Shown here: piece after piece, positions 4,768-38,516 of the stretch | Numbering within the stretch: the stretch's first letter is position 1 | How the letters are laid out: every line of letters starts with the position of its first letter | Virus record (IMG/VR): IMGVR_UViG_3300025103_000055 | Span: 1 to 40,802 of that record | Strand: one strand, 5' to 3' | Length of the DNA stretch: 40,802 bases | From: a virus | Taxonomy: Duplodnaviria; Caudoviricetes | The notes under the pieces: model-generated | What the model saw: only the letters and a program-made list of their open reading frames with translations | What the model was told of the DNA's origin: nothing | Database searches by the model: none | Program-made: the position numbers and the translations under genes

Positions 4768-4796
4768 AATATAACTCCTTATATTTAGTTATTGGT

Positions 4797-5345: not shown

Positions 5346-5390
5346 TGTATAACTCCTTTAGTTGGTTTCTGTTTAACTTTCATGGTGATA

Positions 5391-5419: not shown

Positions 5420-5421
5420 GG

Positions 5422-5757
5422 CTATTTGTGAAAAATATTTACTTCAATAGGATAGTAAGTTTTTTCTTGTCTATCCCATTTTAAAAGATTGTATTTTCCA
5501 TTTGTAATATCTGATACAACAGAACAAACTACACCAATAATTGCAGGATCCCCTGATAATAATAAGTAATCATCAGTTGTATAATCTTTTAATAACGTTC
5601 TTAATTTTTGAATTAATGGCCCAGGTGATAAAATAATTTGGCTTTTTTCTGGCAGAAGTGTGACAATTTGTCCGAACTTTTGTGCACCTACAACATTATA
5701 TTTTGGTTGTCCTATTGAACTTCCTGGTATTTCTTGTGTTAAATAAACTTTGCTCAT
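5422..5757 (-). CDS. Hypothetical protein (small alpha/beta protein), divergent from the SNF2 helicase
   Basis: The ORF track gives 5422..5775; MSKVYLTQE at 5757 is the more plausible start. Contains DDYLLLSGDP. Confidence 0.75.
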   Translation of the reverse strand: MSKVYLTQEIPGSSIGQPKYNVVGAQKFGQIVTLLPEKSQIILSPGPLIQKLRTLLKDYTTDDYLLLSGDPAIIGVVCSVVSDITNGKYNLLKWDRQEKTYYPIEVNIFHK

Positions 5758-5784
5758 TGACTTTTTCTTTTTCATAACTATTAT
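5757..5784 (+). promoter_or_regulatory. Putative promoter for the SNF2 helicase
   Basis: TTGACT-N16-TATTAT, 35 nt upstream of the ATG in a divergent gap. Confidence 0.4.
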
Positions 5785-5819
5785 AGTAATTAGAAAGAAA
5801 AGTAAACAGAGTATATATT

Positions 5820-7507: not shown

Positions 7508-8244
7508 TATCTTCCTCTGTAACTTTCTCTGTTTGAATCTGAAGCAGTGTATCCACCTCCACCTACACCTCTTGATCTTGCTGCAGATGATCTTGTAACT
7601 GAACTTCTATTTCTATCTGGTCTATCATTTCTACCTGCATCTCTTTGAATTCTGTTAGTTATATCTCTAGCGTCTCTAAATACATTTGGATCTCTTGCTA
7701 AAGCTTCTCTATCTCTTCTTCTTTTAAAAAACTCTGCTCCTGTTCTAGAGTTTCTAAAATCACTTAATGATTCTGATCCTCTTAAAGATTCTAAACCACG
7801 TCTTACTAAATTAAATGGTGTAGGAATATTTCTTAATAAATCCAGAATACCACTTAATGGATTTCTAGATTTTTCTACTTGTTCTATATAATTTTGATCT
7901 TGTTCATCATTAGTTGTTTCATCTATCATACTCATGTCACTTACACCTTGAAATCTATCTAAATTCAAACCTCTTAATGTAGTTAAATCAGGTTGATAAA
8001 AATCTTGAGGAGCATTAACAAAATTTCTTGGTTGATAAAACATTTGAGTAGGATTTCTATCTAATGGATAAAAATCTTGAGTAGGACTAAGATTATTTGG
8101 TTGGTAAAAATCTTGAGTAGGATCTTGATTTAAATATTGTTGATTTTGATACTGAAAAGCTAATGGATTTAAACTAGCTATACCACCAGGTCCTTCAAAA
8201 GGTCGTAGTAATTGTTGTAATTTTAATTCATCTAATGTAGCCAT
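7507..8244 (-). CDS. Low-complexity hypothetical protein with PTQDFYQP repeats and an Arg/Gly/Ser-rich tail
   Basis: 245-aa ORF with TAATG coupling on both sides. Confidence 0.75.
   Translation of the reverse strand: MATLDELKLQQLLRPFEGPGGIASLNPLAFQYQNQQYLNQDPTQDFYQPNNLSPTQDFYPLDRNPTQMFYQPRNFVNAPQDFYQPDLTTLRGLNLDRFQGVSDMSMIDETTNDEQDQNYIEQVEKSRNPLSGILDLLRNIPTPFNLVRRGLESLRGSESLSDFRNSRTGAEFFKRRRDREALARDPNVFRDARDITNRIQRDAGRNDRPDRNRSSVTRSSAARSRGVGGGGYTASDSNRESYRGR
7991..8122. repeat. Four imperfect in-frame tandem repeats (core GGTTGATAAAAATCTTGAGTAGGA)
   Basis: Copies start near 7991, 8030, 8066 and 8099 and encode PTQDFYQP-like units. Confidence 0.85.
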
Positions 8245-11200
8245 TATGCTAATCCTCTTTGTCTAAGACGTATTTGTTGTTCTTCAGGTGATAATAAAGC
8301 AAGTTCTGTTGGTGTCAACCCTTGAGATGTAATGTTCCCTGGAGCCTGAGGCTGTGGTTGTAGTATCTGGGCGCTAGGCATTGGTGTTTGTGGTAAAGGT
8401 AATGTTTGTACTTCTTCCAGTAAATAATCATTTAAATTTATACCTGCTTGATCTACATCTTCTAAATTAGGTGTGTATGCTAAACCACCTTGTGCAAATC
8501 TTTGGGGTTCTATATTTCTTTGATATGATCCATCTAATCTTAATCTATTCATATCTCTTCTCATTCTTAAAAGAGAAGGTAATGCTGTTTTAAATACATC
8601 ATAGGTTCCAAGATTTTTTGCTATCTCTCTAAATCTATCTCTAATATCTTCAGAAGGAAAATAAGATTCAAATCTTCCTCTTCTAAGATCATTAAAAGCA
8701 GATGTAGAAAATTGTCTATCAGAAAATTCTGTTTGTAGATTGTTTTTAGATACTCCTAAAATTTCAGCAGCATTAATATTTTTATGCATTTCTTTTTGAA
8801 CATTAAATCTTGCTTTATTTGATTCATAAAATCTTGAAATAATATCATTAGCTTTAATAGGTCCTCCTCTTAATAATCCAAATGCACCACCAGTAAATTC
8901 TCTTCTGGCATTTCTAATTCCTGTATTATATTCAGCAATTTTAAATCCCATTGATTTTAATGGATCTACGGTTATAGGTCTAAATCCTATTAATCCAGCT
9001 ATTTGATCATCTAAGTCTAATATTTTTCCTGATTTAGTTGGAGTCTGTGTAGCTGCCTGACCTATTCTTATGTATTGTCTATATGATGGAGCAAGAGCTT
9101 CCATTAAATGTCTAAACTTAATAGATACTCTATCACCTAAAGGTGTTTGATCTGTATATAAAAGTCTACCATCTCTAGTTCTACCACCTCTTCCAGGTAG
9201 TAATGGAAATAAATCTACATCTGCTGCAGCTTGAGTCCAGATAGATTCATCAATAAATGGTGCAGCCATTTCTGTAATTGCTTCATCAGCTCCTGTGATA
9301 AATCCTTTTAAAATAGTATCACCATCTTTTGTAGCATTCATAACTTCATTAGCTAAAACTCTAAATGGTCTACCTATTAAATCATATGCATTACTGTGAC
9401 TAAAATCTATGTATTTTAATTCACCTGTATTTTCATCTCTAATTGGAACTAATGTAGAATTTCTTGACCATTCAGGAACAAATTGTCTTAAAGCTTGTAT
9501 CTCATCTTCTGTAACATTGTATAAAGCTTTTGAACCTTCTACAACCATAGCCGGAACTGCATTTAAGGTAAATGCCATACCAGCAGCTCTAGTAGCACCA
9601 ATGCTATACATTGGATTATTATTTTTAACTAAACCTTTTCCTTCTATATAAACCATTGGAGATATATTACTTCCTCTAACTACTTCACCTGGACCCGGAA
9701 TATGTTTTAATTCTTTAATTGCTTGTTGGCCAATATTAACTGTTGATCTAATCATTTCAGATGGAAAAGACATAAAGTTACCAACTGGTAATAATCTTGC
9801 AGTTCTTACAACGTCTCCAACATAAGCGTAATTAGGAACAGTGTTTCTAACAATAGCTGCTGCTTCTTCTTTTAATTCTCTTGCAGTTTTATTAATACCT
9901 GCTTTTTTATAAGCATTTTCTCTTCTACTCATTTCAACAAAATAGTTTGTAATTTTCCAAAAATCATCTTCAGCTGTATACTTACCCTGTAAGTATTCAG
10001 GAACTTTTTTTAATTTAGAAAGCATTGGATTTAATACAGCATCTAGATCAGCTATCTTATCTCCAAAATTAATATCTTTCATCAAAGCTCTAAGGTCTCC
10101 TATTTGAACTTGTGAGTTTACCACACCTAATTCTAATAATTCTCTGTATGCATCTTCAAATTCTACACTTTTATATCTAGTATTTTTTAAATTACCTACA
10201 CCAGATATTTCCCAACCTCTTCTAAATGCATCTCCTAACATTTTAGGATTTCTAAAACCTTGAAATAAAATTCCATTTGCTGATGCAAATGCACCGGCAC
10301 TAATAATATTACGTAAGTGTGTAGGTATAGAAAACACTGTTTTAGCTAACTGTGATGCTGCTTTTGGAAATAATAATAAATTTCTATATAAAAAACTTGC
10401 ACCTTTTTCAGCAGCAGTTGCACCTTCTTTACCTCTAACTGCAGCGGTAAAATAACCTTCGGTTAAATTATTTGCTTGTTCTAATGCATCAGCAATGGGC
10501 TTTGTAGTAAATCTACCAACTAATGGATTTGCTATTTGACCTGCTTTAAATGTAGCTAAATCTTTTAATTTATCTTTTTTACCTATTTCTATAATTTCTA
10601 CAACACCATTAGTAGCAGCTCTTGCTTCTTCTGCTGTTTTCCAAAAACTTCCTACTCCTCCTTGAGATTGAATTAAATCATTTTCATCAATCATTTGTTT
10701 TAACATAGCACTATTTCTAGCCATACCAGATAATTGTGTTACTGCATTAAATACAGAATATCTAGGATCTTTCATTTCTCCTAAAAGTTTTCTTATTTCT
10801 ACTGCAGGTCCTTTAGTTTCATCAATTATATTTTTTATAAATTTTTCATCTTTACCAAAACCTTCTAATGTTTTTTTAATATAAGATGGATCTACTAATC
10901 CTTTACTAGATTTTCTAGTCTTAACTGCATCCTCTAAAATTTTATCTACAATATTTCTTGCTTCTTGATAGAAAGGTTTAATATCAGCGGTTCCTCTAGT
11001 TTCAGCTAACTGTCTTTGAAAAAGTTTAGTAGCTCCTTCTTTTACTTCTTCAGTAGGTTTATATCTACCAAAAATTCCTAGAAAAGGAGCATCTTCAAAT
11101 ATTTTATATGTATTTTTTACAGATGATTTTATTCTATCTTGTAAAATAGCTTTTAATTCTGGTGCATTATATTTATTAGTTGTATCAATTAAATTTTTAA

Positions 11201-12269
11201 AAGTAGATCTTGCATCATCTACTGTATTAAAAAGTTGACCTAATACCTCATCACTAACACCTTTGTCTTTTAAAGATTTTGCAAATAAATCTACTTTTTG
11301 TGGATTAACAACTTTAGTTAAATCATCACTTAATATTAAATCATTAATTTCTTTATAAAAAGTTTCTTTTTCTTTACTACTTAAAGTTCTATCTAAAACT
11401 TTTTGCATTTCTGGAAATGCTTTTTGAATAGTTCTATCTAATCTTTTTACTAATTCAGTTGCTTTATTCATATCTGCAGATCTAAATCCTTCCATAACTT
11501 TTTGAGAACCAAATAAAGCTTTTGTTAAAGGTCCTTCAGGTGTAAATGCTTCTGCAAATTTATTTAAATATCTTTCAAATCTATTATTACTATAGGCAAG
11601 TTCTTTTCCTTTTTGTGCTAAAGCTTTAGCACTTTTACCTGCAGCAGCTACTACAGGTGTAAATAATAAAGACTCACTACTAAATTTTAATCTGTTCATT
11701 AATTTTCTAGTAGCATCTTCTCTTCCTTCTAATTCATCTGTATCTAATTGAGTAGGACCTCTATCAAACAAATCACCAAAAGTTCCTATTTTCTCTACAT
11801 CTGCAACAAAAAATTCACCTGCAGCTCCACCAAGTGCTCCTACAGCAAATCTTTGTGCACCTTCTTTTTCATTTAATTTAAATGCTTTCTCTGCACCTTT
11901 AACTACTTTTTTATCTCCTGAGCTAAATGATTTACCTAATTTTTTCTTTTTAAAATAATTAGTAGCTAACTTACTTCCTAATTTAAAACCTGCAGTACCT
12001 GGAATTCCAATTGAAGTTAATGCTTCTGTTAGTTTACCTATACCTTTTTGTTCTGCTATTTCTTCAAATGGATTTAATTTATCAAAAAATATTTCAACAT
12101 CTGCTGCTGTATTGGTATCAAAACCTAAATCAATTAATTCTGCGCCTAATGAAAATACACCTTCTGGAACTTTTATAATACCTGATGCTATACCTGATAA
12201 ACCTGAAGTATACCAAGAAACTTCATTGCTCTCTTCCGCAGGGAACATTGGTTTAAATTCTTCAGCCAT
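8244..12269 (-). CDS. Large internal virion / DNA-ejection protein (putative)
   Basis: 1341 aa, helical character, last of a series of genes in the position podoviruses use for ejectosome proteins. RFAQGG motif near the C-terminus. Confidence 0.6.
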   Translation of the reverse strand: MAEEFKPMFPAEESNEVSWYTSGLSGIASGIIKVPEGVFSLGAELIDLGFDTNTAADVEIFFDKLNPFEEIAEQKGIGKLTEALTSIGIPGTAGFKLGSKLATNYFKKKKLGKSFSSGDKKVVKGAEKAFKLNEKEGAQRFAVGALGGAAGEFFVADVEKIGTFGDLFDRGPTQLDTDELEGREDATRKLMNRLKFSSESLLFTPVVAAAGKSAKALAQKGKELAYSNNRFERYLNKFAEAFTPEGPLTKALFGSQKVMEGFRSADMNKATELVKRLDRTIQKAFPEMQKVLDRTLSSKEKETFYKEINDLILSDDLTKVVNPQKVDLFAKSLKDKGVSDEVLGQLFNTVDDARSTFKNLIDTTNKYNAPELKAILQDRIKSSVKNTYKIFEDAPFLGIFGRYKPTEEVKEGATKLFQRQLAETRGTADIKPFYQEARNIVDKILEDAVKTRKSSKGLVDPSYIKKTLEGFGKDEKFIKNIIDETKGPAVEIRKLLGEMKDPRYSVFNAVTQLSGMARNSAMLKQMIDENDLIQSQGGVGSFWKTAEEARAATNGVVEIIEIGKKDKLKDLATFKAGQIANPLVGRFTTKPIADALEQANNLTEGYFTAAVRGKEGATAAEKGASFLYRNLLLFPKAASQLAKTVFSIPTHLRNIISAGAFASANGILFQGFRNPKMLGDAFRRGWEISGVGNLKNTRYKSVEFEDAYRELLELGVVNSQVQIGDLRALMKDINFGDKIADLDAVLNPMLSKLKKVPEYLQGKYTAEDDFWKITNYFVEMSRRENAYKKAGINKTARELKEEAAAIVRNTVPNYAYVGDVVRTARLLPVGNFMSFPSEMIRSTVNIGQQAIKELKHIPGPGEVVRGSNISPMVYIEGKGLVKNNNPMYSIGATRAAGMAFTLNAVPAMVVEGSKALYNVTEDEIQALRQFVPEWSRNSTLVPIRDENTGELKYIDFSHSNAYDLIGRPFRVLANEVMNATKDGDTILKGFITGADEAITEMAAPFIDESIWTQAAADVDLFPLLPGRGGRTRDGRLLYTDQTPLGDRVSIKFRHLMEALAPSYRQYIRIGQAATQTPTKSGKILDLDDQIAGLIGFRPITVDPLKSMGFKIAEYNTGIRNARREFTGGAFGLLRGGPIKANDIISRFYESNKARFNVQKEMHKNINAAEILGVSKNNLQTEFSDRQFSTSAFNDLRRGRFESYFPSEDIRDRFREIAKNLGTYDVFKTALPSLLRMRRDMNRLRLDGSYQRNIEPQRFAQGGLAYTPNLEDVDQAGINLNDYLLEEVQTLPLPQTPMPSAQILQPQPQAPGNITSQGLTPTELALLSPEEQQIRLRQRGLA

Positions 12270-12274: not shown

Positions 12275-13399
12275 CTACAATCCTATATCGAATGCGTCTT
12301 TTTGATTTTCTCTTAAATCTTTTATTTTTTTCTTTACTACTGGAGTAATTACATCTGGTTTTGTTTCTTGTCCAAATAAACCTACAGATGGTTCTTCTAT
12401 TACTTTAGTATCAGTTCCTGTTCCTTCAACTCCCCCTAGGTTAATAGATTCTATAGTAGCATATTCTATAGGCTGTCCTATTTTTCCATCTTCATATATA
12501 ATTTTTTTATAATTACCTGCATATGGATCATAAACATATGTTCCATTTAATTCTTCAATAATTTTTCTATTAGCTTTTGCTTCTGCAGGATCATTAATAT
12601 TAAAACTTAATACACCATTTCCTTTTACTCTACCTTGTCCTACTTTATTTCTTAAATCATCTGCATCATTAAATTTAAAATCTGTTGCTCTTTTTGCTAC
12701 AGTAGGTTGACCATCAAACTCTTTCATATCTAATTCTAGTTGAACTAGATATTCTGGAGATCTTTTTACTTCTTGATTTTCTTGTTTAATTCTCTCAATA
12801 TCTTTTCTACCTTCAATTTCTCTATCTAAACGCTTCATTAATTCTTTTTGTTCTTCTCTTGATCTAAATAATAAAGCTTCTTGTTCTGCTTTACTTAAAT
12901 CTCTATCTAACACTGCTTTTGCTTTTGCCATATCTGATTTAAATTTTTGATCTGCTTCTGTAGCAATCATTTGATTTCTTTGAGCTATAGATGCACCTGT
13001 TGCGTCAACTCTAATACCTCTTTGAAATTTATCTTCATCTGCTTTTTCTTTAAGTAAAGCTTGAACCGGTTTTTCTGTTGCTGCAATTAAATTAGCAATA
13101 GTTCCACCACCTCTATCTTCTACAGCTGCTGATGGTCCATATGATAATAAGAAACTTGTTAATGGATCAAATCCACCTCTATCTCCAGCTGCTTCTAATA
13201 AAGCTTCTGTGCTTTCTGCAGTTAAATCTTTTAGACTAGGTATAGTTCTTCCTTGGTATGGAGTGTTAAATGAATATTGATCTGTTCCACCTACAAAAGG
13301 ATCTTCAGCATGATTAGTTCTATCTACAATACCGGTCATAATGCCATCTCCGACATTACCGCCTTTTCTAAACATTGGTCTTCTAAATATTTTGCTCAT
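12275..13399 (-). CDS. Putative internal virion / ejection protein
   Basis: 374 aa, begins MSKIFRRPMFRKGG, central coiled coil. Called from gene position. Confidence 0.55.
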   Translation of the reverse strand: MSKIFRRPMFRKGGNVGDGIMTGIVDRTNHAEDPFVGGTDQYSFNTPYQGRTIPSLKDLTAESTEALLEAAGDRGGFDPLTSFLLSYGPSAAVEDRGGGTIANLIAATEKPVQALLKEKADEDKFQRGIRVDATGASIAQRNQMIATEADQKFKSDMAKAKAVLDRDLSKAEQEALLFRSREEQKELMKRLDREIEGRKDIERIKQENQEVKRSPEYLVQLELDMKEFDGQPTVAKRATDFKFNDADDLRNKVGQGRVKGNGVLSFNINDPAEAKANRKIIEELNGTYVYDPYAGNYKKIIYEDGKIGQPIEYATIESINLGGVEGTGTDTKVIEEPSVGLFGQETKPDVITPVVKKKIKDLRENQKDAFDIGL

Positions 13400-13400: not shown

Positions 13401-14225
13401 TTAAACTGTTGGTGGTCTAAACGCTCTATACAAACCTGCTAGTGTAGCACCGGCACTTATACCTGTTTGAACATTACTTGGTCCTGATGTTGGTTGAACT
13501 GTTTGAGAAGTTCCTCCAGGGTATCCAGAAATTAAACTAGCAATACCAGAACCATATTGTTGAGCTGCTGTTAATGGTTGATTTAATTGTGCTTGTAATA
13601 ATTGTTGTTGAGCGCTTAACTGTTGCTGTTGTTGAGCTTGGTTAATGCCACCTAATGTAGATAAAGCTCCAACATCTTGACCTAAGAAACCTTGTTGTGC
13701 TTGACCTAAATTTAATTGATTAGCAATATTTTGTTGAGCTAATTGTTGAGCTTGACCAAAACCTTGTTGTAATAATTGTGCTTGTAATGCTGCTCTGTTT
13801 CTATCTGAAGCTTGTTGATACTCTGCTCTTTGTACACCTTCACGACCACCACCAAATGCACCAGCATTAATAGCTTGTGCTGCTAATGCGGGTATTCCTT
13901 TTTGTGCTTGTACATCAAACTGTTGTAAAGTTGTATCAATTATATCTTGTTGATATGGAGACATAAAAGCTTGATAGCCAGTAGGTCCACTTGAAGCTTG
14001 AGCTGCTTGAAGAAAAGGTTGATAACCACCTATACCTGCAAGTGCTGTTGTTTGAGCTTGAGCTTGTAAAGGATCTTGACCAGCAACAAACTGTTGACCC
14101 ATAACTTGAGATAAGTCAGCGCCTTTAAATTGACCAACTGCTTTTTGTAAATCTGTTAAATAAGTTTTACCGGCAGCTTCTATAAACTCCGGTGGTTGAT
14201 TTATTTGTGTAATCGTTTCAGCCAT
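13401..14225 (-). CDS. Gln/Ala/Gly-rich putative DNA-pilot / ejection protein
   Basis: YMSPY-like FMSPYQQDIID and AGAFGGGR motifs, poly-Q stretches and a hydrophobic C-terminal segment, like podovirus DNA-transfer proteins. Confidence 0.6.
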   Translation of the reverse strand: MAETITQINQPPEFIEAAGKTYLTDLQKAVGQFKGADLSQVMGQQFVAGQDPLQAQAQTTALAGIGGYQPFLQAAQASSGPTGYQAFMSPYQQDIIDTTLQQFDVQAQKGIPALAAQAINAGAFGGGREGVQRAEYQQASDRNRAALQAQLLQQGFGQAQQLAQQNIANQLNLGQAQQGFLGQDVGALSTLGGINQAQQQQQLSAQQQLLQAQLNQPLTAAQQYGSGIASLISGYPGGTSQTVQPTSGPSNVQTGISAGATLAGLYRAFRPPTV

Positions 14226-15175
14226 TATACTCTTCCACCTTTTTCTAATTTTTTCATCATATCGTACATACGTTGTGCACCTTTATTAACGTTTCCGTCA
14301 CCCATTCCTCTTACAGCATCAGCTGTAAATACGAATTCATTGTTTGCTAACATCGCAGGGATGTCATCTGCCTTTTCTTTTACACCAACTGGAGGAATAA
14401 ATCCACCTGTTTCTCTAAGATCTAATTCTGTAACCCCTGCAGGGTTTTGATTTAATGGTAGATTCATGATGCCGGCTGCTTCTATAGCGTTTTGTTCTGG
14501 TTTATTTCCAAAAGCATAACCTATTCTACCACCATTAGCTGCCATTGTTTTCTGTTCAGCTACTTTCTGTCTACGTTTATTTTCTAAAAACTCTTTATAA
14601 AGTTGTTCAGCATTTTGTTTCTTATTAAATTCTTCTCTACCTTTTAGATATTCTTCAAACTCTGTTCCACCTGCATAACCTATTCTACCACCATTAGCAT
14701 ATCCACCTTGACCTGCTGAATACTCAGCAACATCTGATTCTACTAATGCAGGAATCTCATCTTCTGAATAGTTTAAATTTCTATATCCTTTTTCTAAATA
14801 ACTTCTTAGAGCATTAACATCTCTAGTTGCTGCAACTGCTTCTTCATCACCACTTTCTACTGCTGAAGCTAGTCCACCTAATAAACTACCTCCTGCAAAC
14901 ATAGCTGCAGTTTTACCTAAACTTGCATCACCTTTAAAAAAATCTTTTACTCCTGTAAAACTAGGTAAACCTTTACTACCTAAAAAACCCATACCTCTTT
15001 GTAATAAAGTTTGTCCTCCAAAAGGAACAAAAGAAGCAATAGCTGCTAAACCTAAAGGAGACTTAGCTGCTTTAGCTACACCTTTAACAGCGCCTTTAAT
15101 TCCTTTAGTAACTGATTTAACTAGGCTTCCTAAGCCGTATAATTGTCTTGGTTGTAATCCTCGTGATATTGCCAT
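14225..15175 (-). CDS. Putative internal virion protein with repeated ANGGRIGYA motifs and a C-terminal DDIPAML..NEFVFTA domain
   Basis: 316-aa ORF. Motifs read directly from the translation. Confidence 0.7.
   Translation of the reverse strand: MAISRGLQPRQLYGLGSLVKSVTKGIKGAVKGVAKAAKSPLGLAAIASFVPFGGQTLLQRGMGFLGSKGLPSFTGVKDFFKGDASLGKTAAMFAGGSLLGGLASAVESGDEEAVAATRDVNALRSYLEKGYRNLNYSEDEIPALVESDVAEYSAGQGGYANGGRIGYAGGTEFEEYLKGREEFNKKQNAEQLYKEFLENKRRQKVAEQKTMAANGGRIGYAFGNKPEQNAIEAAGIMNLPLNQNPAGVTELDLRETGGFIPPVGVKEKADDIPAMLANNEFVFTADAVRGMGDGNVNKGAQRMYDMMKKLEKGGRV
14514..14698. repeat. Perfect 26-bp direct repeat GCATAACCTATTCTACCACCATTAGC (two copies, 159 nt apart)
   Basis: Copies at 14514-14539 and 14673-14698, both encoding ANGGRIGYA. 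Confidence 0.92.
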
Positions 15176-15230: not shown

Positions 15231-16151
15231 TTATTTGATTTTTTCGCTATCGTCAACAGATTTTGCTTGTTCTAATAGATCAAAGAATCGACCACAGTAT
15301 TGATGATCTCCAACGTGAGTTATGTAATCCATAGCATAGATATGTATTTCTCCTCCCATATCTGTCCATCTTTGACAAAAACCAAAATCTTCACCAAAAT
15401 ATCTCTTAGTTTCTACATCATGTAATGTATCAAATAAATTGTAAAAGTTTTCTTTTTTAACTTCTTTACCATTAATAACAGTAGGTTGATATATCTCTAG
15501 TTCTGGATGATGTTTAATCATATCTTCAATAACTTTTCTTTTAATTAGCATACATCCTGTAGGAGCATGAGTTACTTTAATAACTCCATTTTCCATAGTC
15601 ATTTCATTTTCTTTAATCTTAATAGGAAATACATGACCTGCTTTTAATACATCATCAGGAGTTTTAACCATATTGGTTTCTTTTATCTTTCTCCACATTT
15701 TATCTGTATCAAATGTTTTCATTGGATATGGACAAGAGATAACATCTTTATCTGCACCTATCATTTTGTATATAGTTTTAGAATTAAAATCTATATCTGA
15801 GTCTATAAACAATAAATAATCATAATGGTCTTTATGATTTAAAAATTCTGCTACACATAAGTTTCTACCTTGTGTAACCAATGATGATTTAAGTAATGTA
15901 AAACTAACTAGTATACCTTGTTGCATACAGTCTAATTGAAACTTTAATACAGCTTGAGTGTAATGCATAGACACTTCACTATGACAAGGAGTACAAACCA
16001 TTATCTTTGCTTTTGGTTTATCTAAAATATCTCCTATGTTAATAGTTCTAACGTTTGAGTTTACCTGTTCTATTTTTTCTGTTTGGTAAGTATCTTCATT
16101 AGCAGTTGTTTTCTTTTTTTCAGAAAACCATATGGGTTCATTATTTTGCAT
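15231..16151 (-). CDS. GT-A fold glycosyltransferase (GT2-like)
   Basis: IMVCTPC, SLVTQGRN, YLLFIDSDI (DxD), TGCMLIKR, GEDFGFC, H.G. Confidence 0.8.
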   Translation of the reverse strand: MQNNEPIWFSEKKKTTANEDTYQTEKIEQVNSNVRTINIGDILDKPKAKIMVCTPCHSEVSMHYTQAVLKFQLDCMQQGILVSFTLLKSSLVTQGRNLCVAEFLNHKDHYDYLLFIDSDIDFNSKTIYKMIGADKDVISCPYPMKTFDTDKMWRKIKETNMVKTPDDVLKAGHVFPIKIKENEMTMENGVIKVTHAPTGCMLIKRKVIEDMIKHHPELEIYQPTVINGKEVKKENFYNLFDTLHDVETKRYFGEDFGFCQRWTDMGGEIHIYAMDYITHVGDHQYCGRFFDLLEQAKSVDDSEKIK

Positions 16152-17079
16152 TTAGTGCTCCTCTCAAAAATCTTGTCCATGCTTGTCCTTTTGCTCCCCA
16201 ATCATAAAATCTATTTACATAATTTTGTTGCATCTTTAAATGATCCTGGATGCCTGAATCATGAAGCATATCTGCCGAAGCTTCTATAGCTGCAGCAAAC
16301 TTTCTAGCTAAACTTTTATAATCATTTGAGTAAGGTACATACATTGGAAACTCTGCACCTGTTTCGTATAGCGCACCAAAGTTGGTCGTAATACAGTATA
16401 GACCTGCTGACATAGATTCTAATAATGAGATACAAGATGTTTCTTCCCAAATACTTGGGTATACAAACATTCTATAATCTTTTAAATTTTCTTTAATATA
16501 TTCATTTGGCTTGTAGCCAATATAATTTACATTAGGTAGTTGTCTTGCTTGTTCATATAAAGCTTTATATGATTCATCATTAGCTTCAGCAAAATCTTTT
16601 CCATATACTTCACAAGAAGAATAAACATCTAAACTAATTAATGGATTCTTAACTAATTGCATTGCACCTAACAATACAGATAAACCTCTCCAAGGTGTAC
16701 AGTGATGTATTATTTTTATAGGATCACCTTTTTTATATTGTGTTATAACCGGTTGTACTTCTTCAATACCATTTTTAATGACTGCACATTTCTCTCTAGG
16801 TAAATCAAATCTTTTTGTAAACTGTTCAAAGTTCCAATTAGAATTAAATATATACCAATCATATTTATCATGATTTGATTTATCACTGAACCAGGGTTGT
16901 AAATTAGGTTGATCCCAAGAATTTTTTTGCCAAAGAATATTTAGCTTAGTTGGATGTAAAGGTACTTTACCTGGAACTGATGTACAAATTTCTACTTGAT
17001 TAAGTAAGCTAGGTTCTACATGCTTTCTTAAATATTCAAATTGTAATTCTGTTCCGCCTCTAGGGTTTTGGTTTGTCAT
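16141..17079 (-). CDS. GT-B fold glycosyltransferase (GT4 / group 1)
   Basis: GGTE, IKNGI, PWRGL, FVYPSIWEETSCISLLESMSAG (Ex7E), GALYET. Confidence 0.88.
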   Translation of the reverse strand: MTNQNPRGGTELQFEYLRKHVEPSLLNQVEICTSVPGKVPLHPTKLNILWQKNSWDQPNLQPWFSDKSNHDKYDWYIFNSNWNFEQFTKRFDLPREKCAVIKNGIEEVQPVITQYKKGDPIKIIHHCTPWRGLSVLLGAMQLVKNPLISLDVYSSCEVYGKDFAEANDESYKALYEQARQLPNVNYIGYKPNEYIKENLKDYRMFVYPSIWEETSCISLLESMSAGLYCITTNFGALYETGAEFPMYVPYSNDYKSLARKFAAAIEASADMLHDSGIQDHLKMQQNYVNRFYDWGAKGQAWTRFLRGALNAK

Positions 17080-18141: not shown

Positions 18142-18301
18142 CCAAAAACCACTCCTTTTGATCTTCTTCGTTTTTTAAATCTTGTTGAAAAGAGAAATTA
18201 AGTTGATTTTTTAAAGTGTCAAGAGCTTCTAAAATTTGTCTTTGATTAGATACATCATATTCTGGTTGTGGTTCTGGTATATTAACTACTACTTTTGCCA
18301 T
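18134..18301 (-). CDS. Small hypothetical tail-module protein (55 aa)
   Basis: The true start is probably MAKVVVNIPEPQPEYD at 18301 (TAATG overlap with the upstream stop), not 18352. Confidence 0.75.
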   Translation of the reverse strand: MAKVVVNIPEPQPEYDVSNQRQILEALDTLKNQLNFSFQQDLKNEEDQKEWFLGG

Positions 18302-20265
18302 TATCTTCTTCCATCTGGTTGAGCATCTAATCTTAAAGTTCCATATCTCCAAGTTTCACCGGTACCATCATTCTCTATTTTAATTGATACTAATCTTCCT
18401 CTTGCTCTAGTGTCTACCTTATCAGTAGAATTGGTAATTGTAAATGGACCAAGAGGTGAGCTAGATGCAGTGTTATTTGGATAGTCATTTAATAGTAATG
18501 TAATTTTTGAATTACCAGTAAGAACCTTAAAGTCAGGTATAAATCTTTTTACAGACATAAAAAACTCTCCATCTCCTCTGTAGTCAACCATACCTGTTGA
18601 TTGACCTGTCATACTTCTCCTTGCTGTAATATCAAAGTCCCCTGATTCAATAAACGCATTAATAGAAGTGGTACCACTACTATTAACTTGGTCAGTTCCT
18701 ACTTCATGAGCATAATAAGTTGTTGCTCCATATAAATTTGTAATACCTAATATATCTGAAAATACAGGTGAACCTGTAGAGGTATATTCTGTTGCGTAAG
18801 GTACATCAAAAACTCCAGTATCAACATATGAAGTTCTAGCTAATGATGAAGTTGTCCAAACATTCTCAGAATAATTATAAGTAACACATCTATCAATTTG
18901 ATCTGATCCTGATTTTGGATAAAACCAATTTACTTCTCCATATAAAGTATTGTGTTCTGCATAAACTATATCTGTTGCATTAAAGTTTATTCCTAAATTA
19001 TCTGAAGTTGTTGTAAAAACAAAGTCTTCAACAAGACATGGTAATGATTTAACCGTACCATCAAATACAAAAAATCCACCTTCACCCGACATCCAAAATA
19101 CTTTACCATCGGAATAACTTAATGCGTGTTGGCCAATCAATCCACAGTTAGTACCAACTTGTCTTATACTAAATGTAAATGGTGGACCAACAAATTGAAT
19201 TACATAAGCAGAGCTATCAGTTAAAACTAAAGTATAATCTTTACCTGAAACTGCTCCAACAATTCTATTTCCTTTATCTAATCTAAATGTACCTGCAGTA
19301 TTAACTGCTGTTGGTGTATAATCATTTAAGTCTTCTTGATTTGAAAATCTTATAAACATTGGATCTTGAGTTGTAGGATCTCCAATAGTTGTTTCAGTTC
19401 CAAAATGAAATAAGTGTCTATCTCTATCAGAAACTTGTGTTAATCTTGATGCAGTTGGGTTAGCTGAAGTTGAAGAACCAGATGTAGATTTAGATGCTCT
19501 AATTGTTCTAGCGTTTGACGCTCCAGCATTCCAAGTAAAAGTTTCTCCATCTCTAATTGTTGCAACAAGAACTTGTCCATAGTTATCAAGACTCCAGTTT
19601 CCTGGATCCAGAACTACAGAACTTGTAGCTCTTTCAGTTCCCCAAGTAGAAGTATTCCATGTAGAAGTACTCCAACCATAACCTACGGTTTGAAAGACAG
19701 GACCTACTTCAACATAAGGATTAACAGTTGCTGCACCTGCTGCTGTCATACCAGTACCACCTTCATTTCTTACAGCTTGCACAGTAAATTTATCTACTGT
19801 TGCAACTGTTAAAATTTCATAAGCTACTTCCAATTCTGCTGCTGTAAAGTCTGATGCACCTGTAACAGTTACGCCAGATAGTGTTACATATCTTCCAACT
19901 TCTAGACCATGAGAGCCCTTATTAACTTGTAAAACATTTGAGCCATTAACTGTTGTTAATGTGCATCCTGTAATAGCTGTATCTAATGGTGTAATGTCAA
20001 AAAACTGTTCTCCATAATATAAAAATAAACCTTGTGAAGTTCCAATAGCTGCATATCTCTCTCCAGCTAAAGATGTCCAGGTGTGTTGAGCACGTGCTGC
20101 TCCAGGTAATGTTTCACCTGCAATAGATAATTGATTCCAACCACCTATTTTTTCAGGTAGTCCGTATCTAAATCTAACAAAATCACCATCGACCCACTGA
20201 GACTCGGCTCCTGAGTCTGTGACCATCTTGTTAAAACCAGGCTTGAAATTTAATTTTTGTAGCAT
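18301..20265 (-). CDS. Tail nozzle / tail tubular protein B-like (beta-propeller, P22 gp10-like role)
   Basis: 654 aa, WVDGDFVRFRYGLPEKIGGW, WSLDNYG, FIRFSNQED and ESGDFDI. Beta-rich, in the tail module. Confidence 0.65.
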   Translation of the reverse strand: MLQKLNFKPGFNKMVTDSGAESQWVDGDFVRFRYGLPEKIGGWNQLSIAGETLPGAARAQHTWTSLAGERYAAIGTSQGLFLYYGEQFFDITPLDTAITGCTLTTVNGSNVLQVNKGSHGLEVGRYVTLSGVTVTGASDFTAAELEVAYEILTVATVDKFTVQAVRNEGGTGMTAAGAATVNPYVEVGPVFQTVGYGWSTSTWNTSTWGTERATSSVVLDPGNWSLDNYGQVLVATIRDGETFTWNAGASNARTIRASKSTSGSSTSANPTASRLTQVSDRDRHLFHFGTETTIGDPTTQDPMFIRFSNQEDLNDYTPTAVNTAGTFRLDKGNRIVGAVSGKDYTLVLTDSSAYVIQFVGPPFTFSIRQVGTNCGLIGQHALSYSDGKVFWMSGEGGFFVFDGTVKSLPCLVEDFVFTTTSDNLGINFNATDIVYAEHNTLYGEVNWFYPKSGSDQIDRCVTYNYSENVWTTSSLARTSYVDTGVFDVPYATEYTSTGSPVFSDILGITNLYGATTYYAHEVGTDQVNSSGTTSINAFIESGDFDITARRSMTGQSTGMVDYRGDGEFFMSVKRFIPDFKVLTGNSKITLLLNDYPNNTASSSPLGPFTITNSTDKVDTRARGRLVSIKIENDGTGETWRYGTLRLDAQPDGRR

Positions 20266-32693: not shown

Positions 32694-32855
32694 CTAAACA
32701 CCAACTTTCTTCATAGCTTTTTTATGACTTTTTGAAAATGACATTCCTTTTTTCATGTCTTTTTTCATACTTGTCATATGCTTTGAAGAATGATGCTTAC
32801 TGTGTTTTTTTAAAGTTTCTTTTTGTCTTTTCGTTAGTTGTTTTTCCTTTAACAT
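32694..32855 (-). CDS. 53-aa Lys/His/Met-rich protein
   Basis: Not in the ORF track. Manual translation: MLKEKQLTKRQKETLKKHSKHHSSKHMTSMKKDMKKGMSFSKSHKKAMKKVGV. AAGGAG upstream. Confidence 0.7.
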   Translation of the reverse strand: MLKEKQLTKRQKETLKKHSKHHSSKHMTSMKKDMKKGMSFSKSHKKAMKKVGV

Positions 32856-33307
32856 TTCCATCTCCTTCTTGCTTGTCTTATTCTAGAATTAGGATCATTT
32901 CTAGTTTCAGCAGAAGATCGTTTAAGTTGTCCGAGTGATCTTGCACAATATGACTTTCTACGTTTAGCTGCTTTTGATCCTTTTTTAACTTTCCCTGTCA
33001 CTGCAGTTTTTAATTTTGATCCAGGATTTGCTGCTCTATAAGCTCTTACACCTTTAGCAGTCATTCCAGCACCTGATTTTGTAGGTCTGTAATTTGCGTT
33101 TTTACCTGTAGTAGTTTTTCTAATTGTACCACCTTTTGCTTTTTCAATTCTACCACCAGATGCTTTAAACTTAGTTCTTGGTGTTGTTCTTAAATTTTTC
33201 TTTTCTTGTTTTTCTTCTTGATAATCTCTAATTTCTTGTTGAGTTAAATTACCTAAATATTTACCATCATCGTAAGCTGGAATTGTATTTTTATTATATC
33301 TACTCAT
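32849..33307 (-). CDS. Basic protein (DUF6321-like C-terminal half)
   Basis: GMTAKGVRAYR..NPGSKLK...RRKSYCARS...DPNSRIRQARRRWKC, preceded by KASGGRIEKAKGG. The family name is from memory. Confidence 0.7.
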   Translation of the reverse strand: MSRYNKNTIPAYDDGKYLGNLTQQEIRDYQEEKQEKKNLRTTPRTKFKASGGRIEKAKGGTIRKTTTGKNANYRPTKSGAGMTAKGVRAYRAANPGSKLKTAVTGKVKKGSKAAKRRKSYCARSLGQLKRSSAETRNDPNSRIRQARRRWKC

Positions 33308-33462
33308 TAGATTTTTTGCATGTTTGGATTGTTAGATAATATATTTTTTTCTGCTCTTGGTCTAGCAACAGAGTCTCTGCTTCTTTTTCTAAGTTGAGCA
33401 ATAGCAGATTCTTTTAATGCTTTTTCTTTTTTTAATCTTTGTAAATCTTTTTCTAAGTTCAT
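33307..33462 (-). CDS. 51-aa basic helical protein
   Basis: Not in the ORF track. Manual translation: MNLEKDLQRLKKEKALKESAIAQLRKRSRDSVARPRAEKNILSNNPNMQKI. TAATG coupling at both ends. Confidence 0.7.
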   Translation of the reverse strand: MNLEKDLQRLKKEKALKESAIAQLRKRSRDSVARPRAEKNILSNNPNMQKI

Positions 33463-33716
33463 TATGCAAATGTTTTTACGTTAGTTGGTTTACCACCAGG
33501 ATTACCGGCTGCTCGTTTTCGTTTGACAGCACTCGCCTTTTGCCCTTTTGACATCCGTGTGGCTTTTGCAAGTGGTACGCACTTCGGATATTTTCGCTTC
33601 GAACCCTTGCTTCGTCCACATGGTTGATACTTCCCATTCTTTTTTGGAGCTCCTATGTCTACCCATTTCTCCGATACCCATTTTCTTAATCCACCTTCTG
33701 CAAAATTCCTACGCAC
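33462..33716 (-). CDS. Small basic protein
   Basis: MRRNFAEGGLRKW..EKWVDIG...CGRS...YPKCVP. Confidence 0.75.
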   Translation of the reverse strand: MRRNFAEGGLRKWVSEKWVDIGAPKKNGKYQPCGRSKGSKRKYPKCVPLAKATRMSKGQKASAVKRKRAAGNPGGKPTNVKTFA

Positions 33717-33909
33717 AACTTAATCTCTTTTTTCTAGCCATGCCAGCCATCAAACCACCATTACCGGCTTTTTTACGACTACCTTTTTTGCCACCAGGTG
33801 TAATTTTACCTGAACAAACTCCGGACGCATACATGTTCGCGTACGCCGAAGGGTAAACTTTGAATTTACGTTTCGCTGCTGCTTTTCCTTTTGCACAAAG
33901 TTTAGCCAT
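33709..33909 (-). CDS. Small basic protein
   Basis: MAKLCAKGKAAAKRKFKVYPSAYANMYAS.VC.GK. Confidence 0.75.
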   Translation of the reverse strand: MAKLCAKGKAAAKRKFKVYPSAYANMYASGVCSGKITPGGKKGSRKKAGNGGLMAGMARKKRLSCA

Positions 33910-34055
33910 TATGCGATACCCATTGCTTTTTTCATCATTGACTTAGACTTTGTTTTTTTACCTTTAGACATTAAAATTTTTTTCTGTAATTCTTTTGGTA
34001 AAGTTTTTTGTGCCTTCGTTAAAGTTGGGCCACCTTTATTATAATAGTTTCTCAT
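33909..34055 (-). CDS. 48-aa Lys-rich protein
   Basis: Not in the ORF track. Manual translation: MRNYYNKGGPTLTKAQKTLPKELQKKILMSKGKKTKSKSMMKKAMGIA. GGAGG upstream and TAATG coupling at both ends. Confidence 0.72.
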   Translation of the reverse strand: MRNYYNKGGPTLTKAQKTLPKELQKKILMSKGKKTKSKSMMKKAMGIA

Positions 34056-34675: not shown

Positions 34676-37174
34676 TTATTCGTTTCCACCACGAATAATT
34701 TCAACATTTGGCATCATGTCTTTAGCATTTGGAAGAGTTTTACTCAAAACAGTTTTTTGAATTGATGTATCAGCTCTTAAATTTGCTAAATCTTCATTTT
34801 GTTCAAGTTTTTCTTCTTGATTTTGTTGATTCATCATTGCTCTCATCTTATCAAGATTAATTCTTTCTTGATCTTGCTCTTTTCTACGTTGATTTTCCAT
34901 TGCTCTAAGGTCTAACTCTCTTGATCTTAGTTTTGCAATAGGATCATTGTCGAATTGTGAAGTAATTTCTTTTTCTTCCTTCATAAATTCTTCCATCATC
35001 TCTGCAATCAACTGAGCTTTTCTTGCTTCAATCTTTTGTGTAAGCATTTGTACCTGTTGTTGTAGACCAGGATTCTGTTGAGCCATTTGTTGCATCTGTT
35101 GTAGTTGAACTAATTCATCTCTGAACTCTAATTCAATTTGTTCTTGAGACATTAGACTAATATGTTCAAAAATATTCTTCTCTAATGAAGCCATAATCAT
35201 TGGATTGTTTCTAGCAATGTTAGTTGCCATGAAATTTAAGTGAGCTGTAATGTGAGCTCTGTGATCTTGACCTGGAAACGCTTGAAATTGTTTTCCAGCT
35301 AACGCATCAATGTGTTCTAACGCCGGATCTTTTGGCATTGGTTGCATTGGTTTAATTAAAACTTGATCAATATTTTTTACACCTAAAGCTTCATACATAT
35401 TTCTATATGCTTGATACAGATTGTGCATTTGTGGATTAGATGATGCCAGTTGCAACTCTGTTTGCGCTAGTGAAATACGCTGAGTCTGTGAAAAGATGTT
35501 GGGATCGGCAACTGGCAATATATCTACTCTATCATCAAAGTCAGTTTGTTTAACAACTCTTTGACCCCCAACTACATCGTACGGATATTCCGGTGGTAGA
35601 TATAACTTGAATACTCTTGCTAGTAATTTAAATTCTTGTTTAAGAGCAGAGTAAATTCTTTTGTGAATTGCAGACATAGTTCTACTTCCTCTTTCAAGAA
35701 GAGCTACTGTAGTTCCAACTGCTGCTTGTTGATTGCCATCACCAACTTGTAAATCTGCTATTGATGCAAATCTTTGTCCTGCTTGAACAACGATACCCAT
35801 CAAACTTAATAATGTTTGACTTGGTTCTTTAAATGGAAGCATCATAAATGAATCTCTTAAATTACCACCGGGTGCATCTACATCTCTAAACTCACCTGGT
35901 TGAATTGATTGTGCATCATCTCTAATTCTAATACCACGCATTTTAAATCCTGCAGGTAAATTAGATAAAGTTCCTGCATCTAATAATTGTCTTAATGCAG
36001 AAGTTGCAGTTCTTGATAATCCACCAATCATGTGAATCAAACCAAAACCATAAAAACCTAGTCCTGGTAAAAATTTAAAGTGTACAAAATAATTAATTTT
36101 ATTTTTCATTGCATCACCTATTTCATAGTTTCTTCTAATAGATAAAACTTCACGTGAATTTTCTTCAAGTGTTACAATGTATGGGACCTTAATTCCTGAT
36201 GGCTCACCAGTCTCTTGATTTACATCTTCAAAACCTTCTAAGTCTAAATCAATATGACATTCTAATAATGTATAAACATCGTCGTTTGTAGTTCTTGTTA
36301 CTCCTTCAAGTTCTCTTTCCTTTTTTTCAATTTCAGTTTCTTTATCTCCAGGTTTTCCAATATCTATATCTTTATAGAATCCACCAACCTGTTGTTTTCT
36401 TAAATCGTTTTCAGAAATTTTTACACGATGGATGATTGCCTCTGCATCGTCTAATGAGGTAGCGGTGTAGGGTACAATCAAATCATCTGCAGGAACAAAT
36501 TTAGAAACTGCTCTTTGTTCCATATCGTCATAGTAGACTTTTTTAAAAGCAGAACCTGCTAATGGTAAGTTAAATAATAACTGATCAAAATCTGGTTCGT
36601 ACTCTTTCATTTTTTCCATTAACTCGTAGTTCATGAAATCTTTTACTCTAGCTGCTTGCTGAGTTTTTTCTTGCGATGGCATTCCAATTGTTTGAGTTCT
36701 AACTGGTCCATCTGCTGGAAGTAATTCTTTGTAAGCTAATGCTTGAAATTGTGTAACAGCTTCTGCTAGTACTGGGTGTGTTGCACCACTAGCCCCTGCA
36801 AAAGGTTCTGTTCTATTATTATATTTAAAACCTAAAAGGTCTAAACCTTGAGTATAAGTTTGTGCCCAATCTTTTCTTGAAGCTGTGTAGTCTTGATACT
36901 TAGAAGATAAATCTGAGGCTAGTCTTCCAAGTACATCGTCTGGTAAAAATTCTGCTAAGTTTGCATAATGCTCATCACCACCTTCAGGTGACGCTGCTGC
37001 AGGATCTAAATTAATATCTACTGATCCATCTTCGTTTTCTGAAACTTCAATATCATCAGGTGATTCTTGAACCGCTTGAACTTCTTCTACAATTTCTTCT
37101 TGAATCTCTTCTTCACCAGGAACATTAACTGTTTTTCGAACTTCGTTTGGAAGTGCTTTGTCTATATCTGCCAT
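34676..37174 (-). CDS. Portal protein (P22-like, long C-terminal coiled coil)
   Basis: SRKDW, HPVLAEAVTQFQA, LPLAGSAFKKVY, FLPGLGFYGFGL, LRQLLDAGTLSNLP, VGTTVALLE. 832 aa, downstream of terL. Confidence 0.88.
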   Translation of the reverse strand: MADIDKALPNEVRKTVNVPGEEEIQEEIVEEVQAVQESPDDIEVSENEDGSVDINLDPAAASPEGGDEHYANLAEFLPDDVLGRLASDLSSKYQDYTASRKDWAQTYTQGLDLLGFKYNNRTEPFAGASGATHPVLAEAVTQFQALAYKELLPADGPVRTQTIGMPSQEKTQQAARVKDFMNYELMEKMKEYEPDFDQLLFNLPLAGSAFKKVYYDDMEQRAVSKFVPADDLIVPYTATSLDDAEAIIHRVKISENDLRKQQVGGFYKDIDIGKPGDKETEIEKKERELEGVTRTTNDDVYTLLECHIDLDLEGFEDVNQETGEPSGIKVPYIVTLEENSREVLSIRRNYEIGDAMKNKINYFVHFKFLPGLGFYGFGLIHMIGGLSRTATSALRQLLDAGTLSNLPAGFKMRGIRIRDDAQSIQPGEFRDVDAPGGNLRDSFMMLPFKEPSQTLLSLMGIVVQAGQRFASIADLQVGDGNQQAAVGTTVALLERGSRTMSAIHKRIYSALKQEFKLLARVFKLYLPPEYPYDVVGGQRVVKQTDFDDRVDILPVADPNIFSQTQRISLAQTELQLASSNPQMHNLYQAYRNMYEALGVKNIDQVLIKPMQPMPKDPALEHIDALAGKQFQAFPGQDHRAHITAHLNFMATNIARNNPMIMASLEKNIFEHISLMSQEQIELEFRDELVQLQQMQQMAQQNPGLQQQVQMLTQKIEARKAQLIAEMMEEFMKEEKEITSQFDNDPIAKLRSRELDLRAMENQRRKEQDQERINLDKMRAMMNQQNQEEKLEQNEDLANLRADTSIQKTVLSKTLPNAKDMMPNVEIIRGGNE

Positions 37175-37286
37175 TATATTTTTTCTCCGTAAGTTTTATC
37201 TGTTTAACACCATTATAATTAATATTCAACCCCTGAGGCATGGGCCCTGATTCCGGAGGAATTGTTCTAGTAAGCCTTTTAGTCAT
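37125..37286 (-). CDS. 53-aa hypothetical protein (PP.SGPMPQGL motif)
   Basis: Not in the ORF track. Manual translation: MTKRLTRTIPPESGPMPQGLNINYNGVKQIKLTEKKYNGRYRQSTSKRSSKNS. Overlaps the upstream stop and the portal start. Confidence 0.55.
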   Translation of the reverse strand: MTKRLTRTIPPESGPMPQGLNINYNGVKQIKLTEKKYNGRYRQSTSKRSSKNS

Positions 37287-37932
37287 TACCAAATTTTTTG
37301 TATAATTCTTGTCCTGGTCCTAAAGCAAATTCTTTATATGACATTCTATCATCATATCCACCTTTACCATCGAAGAAGTATTCTCTCATCCATTTTTCAG
37401 ATTTAGGCATTGTACCACTACCCTGGTTTTTTCTTGTTTCCTCCATAGCCTGTTTTACTGCTTGACCAAATTCATAACCATCGTCCATAAGTTCTTTTAC
37501 TCTTTTACTTAATTCTGCATCAGGATCCAGGGAGCCTATACCAAATTGTGCTCGGCCTCCATCAGCAAACTTTTTAAAATATTGTTCTGCAAATTTATCT
37601 ATATCCATGCCAGTTGCTTCAAGGCCTCCGGCTTTAATATAAGCTTCTGTAACCATTGCATTGTATTCTGTATCTCCACCTTCTAACATATTGGTTCTAT
37701 AATTTTCTATTTTCTCAGTTACCATTTCTCCTGTTTCACCAAATAATGGTTTAACAATTTTTAAATACTCATCTATTTCTAGTTCACCATTTTCATATGC
37801 TTTTCTTGAAAATATACCGACCATGTCAGCATAAGTTTTTGGAGACAAAGTATTAACTGCTGCTTCTGTGTCAAGCATGTCTAACATCTTTGTAAAATTT
37901 TTAGGTTTTTTAGGAGGGGCTTGGTCAGGCAC
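37279..37932 (-). CDS. Modular hypothetical protein with MLEGG / FADGG motifs
   Basis: 217-aa ORF starting at GTG with AGGAG upstream. Confidence 0.7.
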   Translation of the reverse strand: MPDQAPPKKPKNFTKMLDMLDTEAAVNTLSPKTYADMVGIFSRKAYENGELEIDEYLKIVKPLFGETGEMVTEKIENYRTNMLEGGDTEYNAMVTEAYIKAGGLEATGMDIDKFAEQYFKKFADGGRAQFGIGSLDPDAELSKRVKELMDDGYEFGQAVKQAMEETRKNQGSGTMPKSEKWMREYFFDGKGGYDDRMSYKEFALGPGQELYKKFGND

Positions 37933-38516
37933 TACAGGACTCCTGCAATACCGCCCATAGCTTTTTTTTCTATTTTTTTATCAGGACCAGGACCAATTGC
38001 TTGGTTTTTTTTATAGAAATCTTTTTTTAAAATAAACTTAGGTCCATCTCTTGTTACAACTTCTACATAATCATCCATATTAAACATGGTACTACCTTCA
38101 CCTGTAGTTGTATCTCTTTGCATTGATTTAGATGGTTTAACAATTTCTTCTGTTCCACTACCATAAGCCATTCTCATAGATCCACCACCCATAGCCATAG
38201 CTCTATTCTCTTCCATCATTTTCTTTTTAGACACATAATTATCTAAATATTGATCTAAGGAAATACCTCTAACTGCAGGGTCGTCTTTTGATTTTAAATC
38301 GTTGTATTCGTTAATGACACCCATTAACTCAAGTTGAAATTCTTCTTCAGCAGTTTCTGATGCCATTTTAATTGATGGAGCTTTTCTTAAAGATCTAATT
38401 CCACCTTCATCTTCATACTCTTCAGGATCGTTAAGGTCTTCTAAAGTTTCACCCATCTCGATCATTCTAAGCTGATCTTTTAATCTTTGGTCTAGTTCTC
38501 TATCGTCAATTGCCAT
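37932..38516 (-). CDS. Modular hypothetical protein with MAMGG / KAMGG motifs
   Basis: 194-aa ORF directly after terL. Confidence 0.72.
   Translation of the reverse strand: MAIDDRELDQRLKDQLRMIEMGETLEDLNDPEEYEDEGGIRSLRKAPSIKMASETAEEEFQLELMGVINEYNDLKSKDDPAVRGISLDQYLDNYVSKKKMMEENRAMAMGGGSMRMAYGSGTEEIVKPSKSMQRDTTTGEGSTMFNMDDYVEVVTRDGPKFILKKDFYKKNQAIGPGPDKKIEKKAMGGIAGVL

Follow-up and report, generated by a model that had tools for sequence, protein, structure and literature searches.

A tape measure 'hook' module at the C-terminus of a likely podovirus ejection protein, and its possible connection with AxGG tags

A conserved module of some 65 residues, real and widespread but without a Pfam family (a Pfam scan of the module gave no family match), is found here in a new setting, at the C-terminus of a 316-aa protein that is probably ejected with the DNA of a marine podovirus. 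The module is homologous to a 'hook' in the tape measure proteins (TMPs) of long-tailed phages, and the four podovirus or podovirus-like genomes compared that carry it are rich in short motifs of the form AxGG. We tentatively suggest, at rather less than even confidence, that the module could be a non-catalytic clasp, made complete by an AxGG peptide, that would gather tagged cargo at the portal. If common to long-tail rulers, podovirus cargo and possibly a portal-bound domain of crAss phages, the module would tie together three DNA-delivery systems that have so far been treated apart. In the literature covered, which subscription papers lie outside, the hook is described for JBD30 only, and no paper ties it to podovirus or crAss cargo or describes an AxGG tag.

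The carrier protein and its genome setting

The window, by which we mean the whole stretch of 40,802 nucleotides analysed, is the linear virus record IMGVR_UViG_3300025103_000055 (40.8 kb, 65% complete). Its gene order is colinear with that of Pelagibacter phage HTVC027P from the terminase to the SNF2 helicase and, judged from its genes, the source is a phage of the HTVC023P/027P type, whose nearest relatives in culture have short tails. HTVC027P has podovirus morphology, and HTVC023P-type phages are kin of the most abundant viral clusters in the ocean, according to the part of the preprint that was available (bioRxiv 10.1101/2019.12.14.876532). Together with the SU10-type portal and the 654-aa virion protein (Table 1), Pfam and PHROG matches identify two SU10-type adaptors, a capsid protein and GroES.

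The 316-aa gene opens a block encoding proteins of 316, 274, 374 and 1341 aa, and in DSL-LC04 the counterpart of this block is flanked by genes annotated as 'stabilization protein' and 'DNA transfer protein'. We infer that the block encodes ejection proteins, and the 316-aa protein is read as an ejection (cargo) protein because it heads the block. Synteny with the DSL-LC04 'stabilization protein' suggests that the 654-aa protein is the nozzle. Two glycosyltransferase-like genes (15231-17079, minus strand) separate the likely nozzle gene from the ejection block, and are kept there in HTVC027P. The first-pass annotation had described the module as a free-standing domain; the C-terminus that it quoted is present exactly in the ORF at 14225..15175 (minus strand), but belongs to the 316-aa likely ejection protein.

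The 316-aa protein is too short for a TMP and is without a Pfam TMP domain; and the genes do not form a long-tail block, the neighbours being ejection-type genes, SU10-type adaptors and a portal. The 41 window proteins scanned gave no match to a Pfam family of tail tubes or TMPs.

Table 1. Features of the window (all on the minus strand) with the basis for each assignment.
Feature	Position	Strand	Basis or remark
316-aa module carrier, likely internal virion/ejection (cargo) protein	14225..15175	-	ortholog of HTVC027P gp82
Conserved C-terminal module, residues 251-316	14228..14425	-	homologous to TMP 'hook'
ETGG, decayed form of the module's leading AxGG	14402..14413	-	alignment with TMP-type sequences
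DDIPAML, including Asp270	14348..14368	-	Asp conserved in 44/45 TMP/podovirus-type rows; Tyr in lambda
NNEFV, including Glu280	14330..14344	-	Glu is the sole invariant residue, 88/88 rows
EKGGRV, terminal motif	14228..14245	-	probably stands where TMP copies have their second AxGG (alignment)
Tandem tag YANGGRIGYAGG, in cis	14666..14701	-	motif search
Tandem tag AANGGRIGYAFG, in cis	14507..14542	-	motif search
274-aa Gln-rich protein	13401..14225	-	weak DNA ejection family match, phrog_4287 E 0.0013
374-aa likely ejection protein	12275..13399	-	N-terminal FRKGG tag at 13358-13372
1341-aa likely large ejection protein	8244..12269	-	FAQGG at 8484-8498
654-aa virion protein, likely short-tail nozzle	18301..20265	-	phrog_3287 E 1.5e-81; upstream of ejection block
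Portal protein, SU10 type	34676..37174	-	PF23899, phrog_1216; candidate docking surface
217-aa protein, terminase-portal slot	37279..37932	-	FADGGRAQFG tag at 37540-37569
194-aa protein	37932..38516	-	two tags, 38184-38198 and 37950-37964
Run of small Lys/Arg-rich ORFs, 48-152 aa (including 152, 84, 66, 48)	32694-34055	-	DUF6321, weak DUF5872

The hook core G..[SD]D.IPAML..GE[FY]V..A.AV is present in the window, where it reads DDIPAMLANNEFVFTADAV. The C-terminus matches 4711 cluster representatives at E<=0.001, from which the best 150 were taken and 149 parsed. In this best-matching set lengths range from 95 to 729 aa, the module is C-terminal in 146 of the 149, and at least one tag lies upstream of it in 110; median identity is 89% within the module, against 38% in the part preceding it (131 members with at least 150 aa upstream). 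Such extreme conservation fits a fixed partner, and the module could be a passive anchor that binds the portal in podoviruses and crAss phages, the baseplate interior in siphoviruses, or itself. The AxGG motifs would then be read by the portal, capsid, scaffold or a host protease, or would be decayed repeats of the first hairpin. We consider an anchor of this kind unlikely, but rank it second.

Several longer homologs (P0179, P0184, P0204, P0212, P0215 and P0217) bear the precomputed accession PF27070, which our local Pfam scan did not return for three of the longer homologs. There are also giant carriers of 1119-3692 aa (L159:1439-12517, L312:1024-6231, L313:2569-6225 and L321:2866-6225), some of which have a podovirus-type insert between the helices.

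Homology to tape measure proteins

The likeness to TMP C-termini proposed in the first-pass annotation is well founded. Three PHROG tape-measure families are hit by the last 66 aa of the 316-aa protein (E 2.9e-4 to 3.3e-3), the match being confined to residues 254-314, and 53 of 60 tblastn rows, evenly spread among 434 phage records (E<=10), are annotated as tape measure protein, although 40 of these are near-identical mycobacteriophage matches and thus redundant. A profile built solely from 31 podovirus-type, non-TMP sequences finds the Douge TMP (PDB 8ZDO) twice with E 4e-13, and the JBD30 TMP (PDB 8RK3) at residues 1021-1056 with E 7e-7. Comparison with lambda gpH had also been proposed, and the motifs quoted for it are genuine (FATGG at 733, GEFV at 754-757, YATGG at 778); the podovirus-only profile reaches gpH weakly (E 0.18), and an iterated search from the window sequence admits it in its seventh round with E 0.007, while reversed decoys give nothing at E<=10. 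By these matches lambda gpH is a divergent member of the module family. The two copies in the 8ZDO TMP (~964-1014 and ~1411-1463) are internal, far from its C-terminus.

Of 31 loci examined in cellular genome records, 26 encode long carriers, of at least 750 aa and with 60 aa or more between the Glu and the C-terminus; they are taken to be TMPs from their length, and a few resemble giant podovirus-type proteins. Their frame is AxGG-core-AxGG, with a GG-type motif directly before the core in 24 of the 26 and AxGG after it in 18, and the Glu lies 60-125 aa from the C-terminus in 25. Podovirus-type copies differ in that the leading motif is decayed (ETGG, RKTG, TGEG) and full tags sit further upstream; the window module has ETGG before it and EKGG after it, and an intact AxGG on neither side.

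The module occurs in phages of SAR11, actinobacteria, Negativicutes and Bacteroidota, and weak matches in Synechococcus phage Bellamy (gene 12) and S-SM2 suggest that it may occur in large cyanophages too. This range of hosts bears on the possibility that the module acts only after ejection, as a nucleus for refolding or oligomerisation of a trans-envelope channel or as a binder of the host envelope, with no part in assembly. Channels are formed by TMPs as well as by podovirus ejection proteins, and the N-terminal half of the carrier is Gly-rich and mildly hydrophobic (hydropathy peaks 1.0-1.2). However, the hosts are very different from one another, some copies are small free-standing ORFs among apparent head genes, and the lambda module lies in the piece that is cut off before infection; we regard a role confined to this stage as very unlikely, the least probable of the readings considered.

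The AxGG tag

With patterns chosen post hoc, after the data had been seen, AxGG-like motifs in the 52 window genes exceed chance: the strict pattern occurs 6 times where shuffles average 1.6 (a value reached by 10 of 1000 shuffles), and the relaxed one 16 times where they average 6.2 (3 of 1000). Enrichment over shuffled expectation is seen in all four of the module-bearing podovirus or podovirus-like genomes, namely the window (12 v 4.3), HTVC027P (12 v 4.3), DSL-LC04 (11 v 5.9) and HTVC115P (12 v 5.2), and in neither of the two genomes in which the module gave no match, HTVC010P (1 v 2.1) and T7 (5 v 3.6); the pattern is again post hoc, and the sample is of six genomes plus crAss001, mostly partial. 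This co-occurrence of module and tag would fit a reader that acts in trans. The first-pass annotation had noted the spread of the motif over other proteins, which stands, but had taken the motif to be absent from around the module itself; ETGG and EKGG flank the module and two tandem tags lie upstream, and since these full tags are in the same chain, the 'missing' motif is present in cis. The consensus of the tandem tag in the window carrier family is (Y/M/A)A(N/E/D)GGR(I/M/V)G(Y/F)AxG.

Conservation of the tag differs from one protein to another. Orthologs of the 374-aa protein are tagged in 32 of 43 cases, with 35 motifs where 6.6 are expected and almost all of them N-terminal, whereas none of the orthologs of the helicase (0/15) or the glycosyltransferases (0/21 and 0/22) has the tag. 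Within the ejection block itself the 274-aa protein is tagged in none of 53 orthologs, with 24 expected, and the 1341-aa protein in 10 of 30, which is not an enrichment; nor is the tag confined to cargo, since 8 of 10 orthologs of the tail collar fit the pattern as well. Within 32849..34055 (minus strand) the run of small basic ORFs contains AxGG-like motifs at 33152-33166, 33128-33142, 33690-33704, 33754-33768 and 34029-34043.

Several of these small ORFs (32694-34055) are tagged, and they resemble DNA-condensing core proteins. The slot between terminase and portal holds hypervariable tagged proteins, of 217 and 194 aa in the window (37279-38516) and of 483 and 892 aa in HTVC027P (1953-6084), which are candidates for injected accessory cargo. 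The terminase large subunit ends in MRFRQGG (38588-38602, minus strand), a tag-like sequence that is shared with the HTVC027P terminase and may be due to chance; in some phages it is by its C-terminus that the terminase docks on the portal.

Other homes of the module

In HTVC115P the module is carried by gp72, whose gene sits between the portal gene and a likely scaffold gene, and four tags are found in a separate protein of 1893 aa. A portal-sized gene lies upstream in 17 of the 20 related loci listed, and the carriers have one to five tags.

A related family, here called GPSH (AxGG-x-x-x-G-P-S-H..GGI..EAEGGE), was collected with a sequence pattern. It matches the TMP/podovirus alignment at 91.5% (E 8e-7, 48 columns), a score that none of 40 column shuffles reaches, and comprises 43 long TMP-like proteins and 24 free-standing ORFs of 68-160 aa. 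The neighbours of the 24 free-standing ORFs contain 48 tag motifs where 14.8 are expected, as counted in loci of at least 2.6 kb with mid-sized ORFs left out. Two of the free-standing loci have a terminase neighbour, and upstream lie genes of ~450 aa that presumably encode capsid proteins. These free-standing copies with tagged neighbours offer the best support for a module that may act in trans. They are left unexplained by an anchor alone, as is the decayed cis motif of podovirus copies, and an anchor does not explain why tag enrichment is seen only in module-bearing genomes.

The cargo protein of crAss001

Inside the crAss001 capsid, residues 425-552 of the cargo protein C1 (gp45, L343:30988-33516) sit on the wing of the portal (PMC10172136; PDB 7QOG chain M), which speaks for an anchor. 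This domain starts at AFGG and gp45 has several further AxGG motifs; over 11-60 kb of crAss001 the tag is not enriched overall (6 v 4.2), and 4 of the 6 are in gp45, mostly in cis therefore, a further point for an anchor. TMP copies, however, cannot meet a portal wing.

When the profile of the window family is compared directly with that of crAss C1, the match falls short of significance. Searches iterated from the window sequence do not arrive at gp45, and PF25725 finds nothing in the window up to E 10 and gives no Pfam match (curated cut-off 27 bits). The link is instead by a chain of profiles. A GPSH-with-insertion family matches crAss C1 at 99% over 87-89 columns and, among 23 crAss001 proteins, finds gp45 446-551 with E 5e-12; the same family matches the GPSH family at 98%, a middle link that covers the N-terminal core of ~30 residues only and that is partly circular because both sets were collected with overlapping patterns. 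Outside the patterns the two GPSH sets agree in a Gly three residues before the His (97/97 and 101/101) and in a GG further upstream (74/97 and 94/101). Alignment A2 reaches both sets with E 0.003 in a search of 58,068 sequences (38,266 ORFs plus reversed decoys), in which no reversed decoy appears at E<=1. On this evidence the N-terminal core of the module is probably homologous to the gp45 domain, by about two chances in three.

Conserved residues, predicted structure and cleavage

Across 88 diverse members no residue but the Glu of GE is invariant, with G8, G12 and G28 nearly so. The structure model of the window sequence has helices at 81-87 and 92-107 (of 112) and no assigned core strands, and that of a TMP-type homolog has two strands of two residues and two helices; they agree roughly with the hook predicted for JBD30, at modest confidence (pLDDT 68 and 66), and neither matched any solved chain in a structural search.

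The first-pass annotation had suggested that the module might cleave xAxGG peptides, and this half of the proposal is the weaker one. It would require a minimal, Glu-dependent, oligomeric protease or autoprotease that cuts at AxGG or close to it, on its own chain in TMPs and in trans on podovirus and crAss cargo. The invariant Glu would suit this, as would the Asp in one subfamily (Table 1) and a His at a nearby column in the GPSH subfamily, although the His was part of the search pattern. Lambda gpH loses ~14 kDa, and a 2025 paper, in the portion available, still calls the cut site and catalyst open (PMC12617516); we compute that a cut after FATGG would release 12.2 kDa. The gene in HTVC115P lies directly after the portal, a slot that is often home to prohead proteases, and Pfam and PHROG scans of window proteins found no stand-alone protease family. 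Both resolved pieces of gp45, 214-245 and 425-552, which lie 420 A apart (PMC10172136), are bracketed by AxGG (206-210/260-264 and 424-428/559-563). Cleavage at those motifs would explain the separation without threading 12 chains through the portal.

Against these points, the module is of ~50-65 residues with only a hairpin and helices, and its 88 rows conserve no catalytic dyad, triad or metal ligands, nor any second invariant polar residue. The D(D)IP Asp, once proposed as catalytic, is replaced by Tyr in lambda and by Gly or Ala in the GPSH family. No family or fold match to a serine prohead protease, an S74 autoprotease or a T5-type metallopeptidase was found with models of such modest confidence, and the JBD30 authors report no peptidase motif in the sections available (PMC11445458). 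T5 pb2 is cut beside a different, metallopeptidase motif (bioRxiv 10.1101/2022.09.20.507954, in excerpt), and the gp45 paper reads the two pieces as one chain and does not mention cleavage (PMC10172136). TMP cleavage may be general (PMC11972413, in excerpt). The removal of the lambda C-terminal region, assumed in the first-pass annotation, is correct in that gpHC is cut off, yet the particle retains three copies of it or more (PMC12617516, in excerpt). A protease is therefore improbable, though the position of the lambda cut, close to the first motif, keeps it among the candidates. A lone Glu beside Gly-Gly turns would as easily be backbone-capping, and we therefore favour a clasp over a protease.

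A model for the module

In the clasp model, the predicted fold of the module is a short hairpin followed by two helices, and an AxGG peptide would complete it, the invariant Glu holding the backbone of the Gly-Gly turn. In TMPs the motifs would be supplied in cis; in the window they would come from the upstream tags and from other proteins. The docking place may be the inner face of the portal, as it is for crAss001 gp45 425-552, to which the module is connected only by the profile chain, and the clasp would thereby gather AxGG-tagged cargo at the portal. We rank this model first, as a candidate that falls short of an even chance, followed by the plain anchor, the protease and the post-ejection role. 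A bolder combination, in which module and AxGG form one tag-reader system spanning siphophage TMPs, marine podovirus cargo and crAss C1, with the invariant Glu as the gpH-cleaving catalyst of an oligomeric protease of ~60 residues acting in cis in tails and in trans in heads, seems to us decidedly improbable, a little more so than a protease as such.

Were the module a tag reader, AxGG would be a portable capsid-loading tag, and the question bears on the way in which ejection and core proteins are directed into podovirus heads. Were it a protease, the cleavage of lambda gpH would be explained. Residue E755 and the FATGG motif of gpH are targets for point mutations that bear on how gpH is cut.

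Comparison with known systems

The closest described relative is the hook of the JBD30 TMP (1022-1066), a sequence homolog whose predicted build, a short hairpin and two helices, is roughly that of the models made here. The available part of that paper presents the hook as a prediction and suggests, as speculation, that it anchors the TMP in the baseplate (PMC11445458), a proposal in keeping with a passive anchor. The JBD30 hook lies inside a TMP of 1158 aa and is known from one phage by prediction only, whereas the window copy ends a podovirus-type protein of 316 aa, has an insert of six to seven residues between the helices, and has a decayed leading AxGG. Lambda gpH 733-782, within gpHC, shares the frame FATGG...GEFV...YATGG, but is without the SD Asp and has intact flanking motifs in cis; this stretch is unresolved by cryo-EM in the part of the study available (PMC12617516).

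The crAss001 gp45 gene is a cargo gene and, like the carrier gene, which is likely one too, lies shortly after the muzzle or nozzle gene and ahead of other cargo genes; its product has several AxGG motifs and a core (AxGG..G-x-S/T-H..GI..VE-x-GE) tied to the module by the profile chain; its domain, however, is longer, has other C-terminal helices and is internal rather than terminal. The nearest functional parallel is the capsid-targeting sequence of T4, where, likewise, a brief sequence shared by numerous unrelated proteins would direct these into the head. In T4 the signal is found at the N-terminus exclusively and is removed by a serine protease, the prohead protease gp21. No such protease was found in the window, and the AxGG tags, by contrast, are also internal, are repeated, and are based on Gly-Gly.
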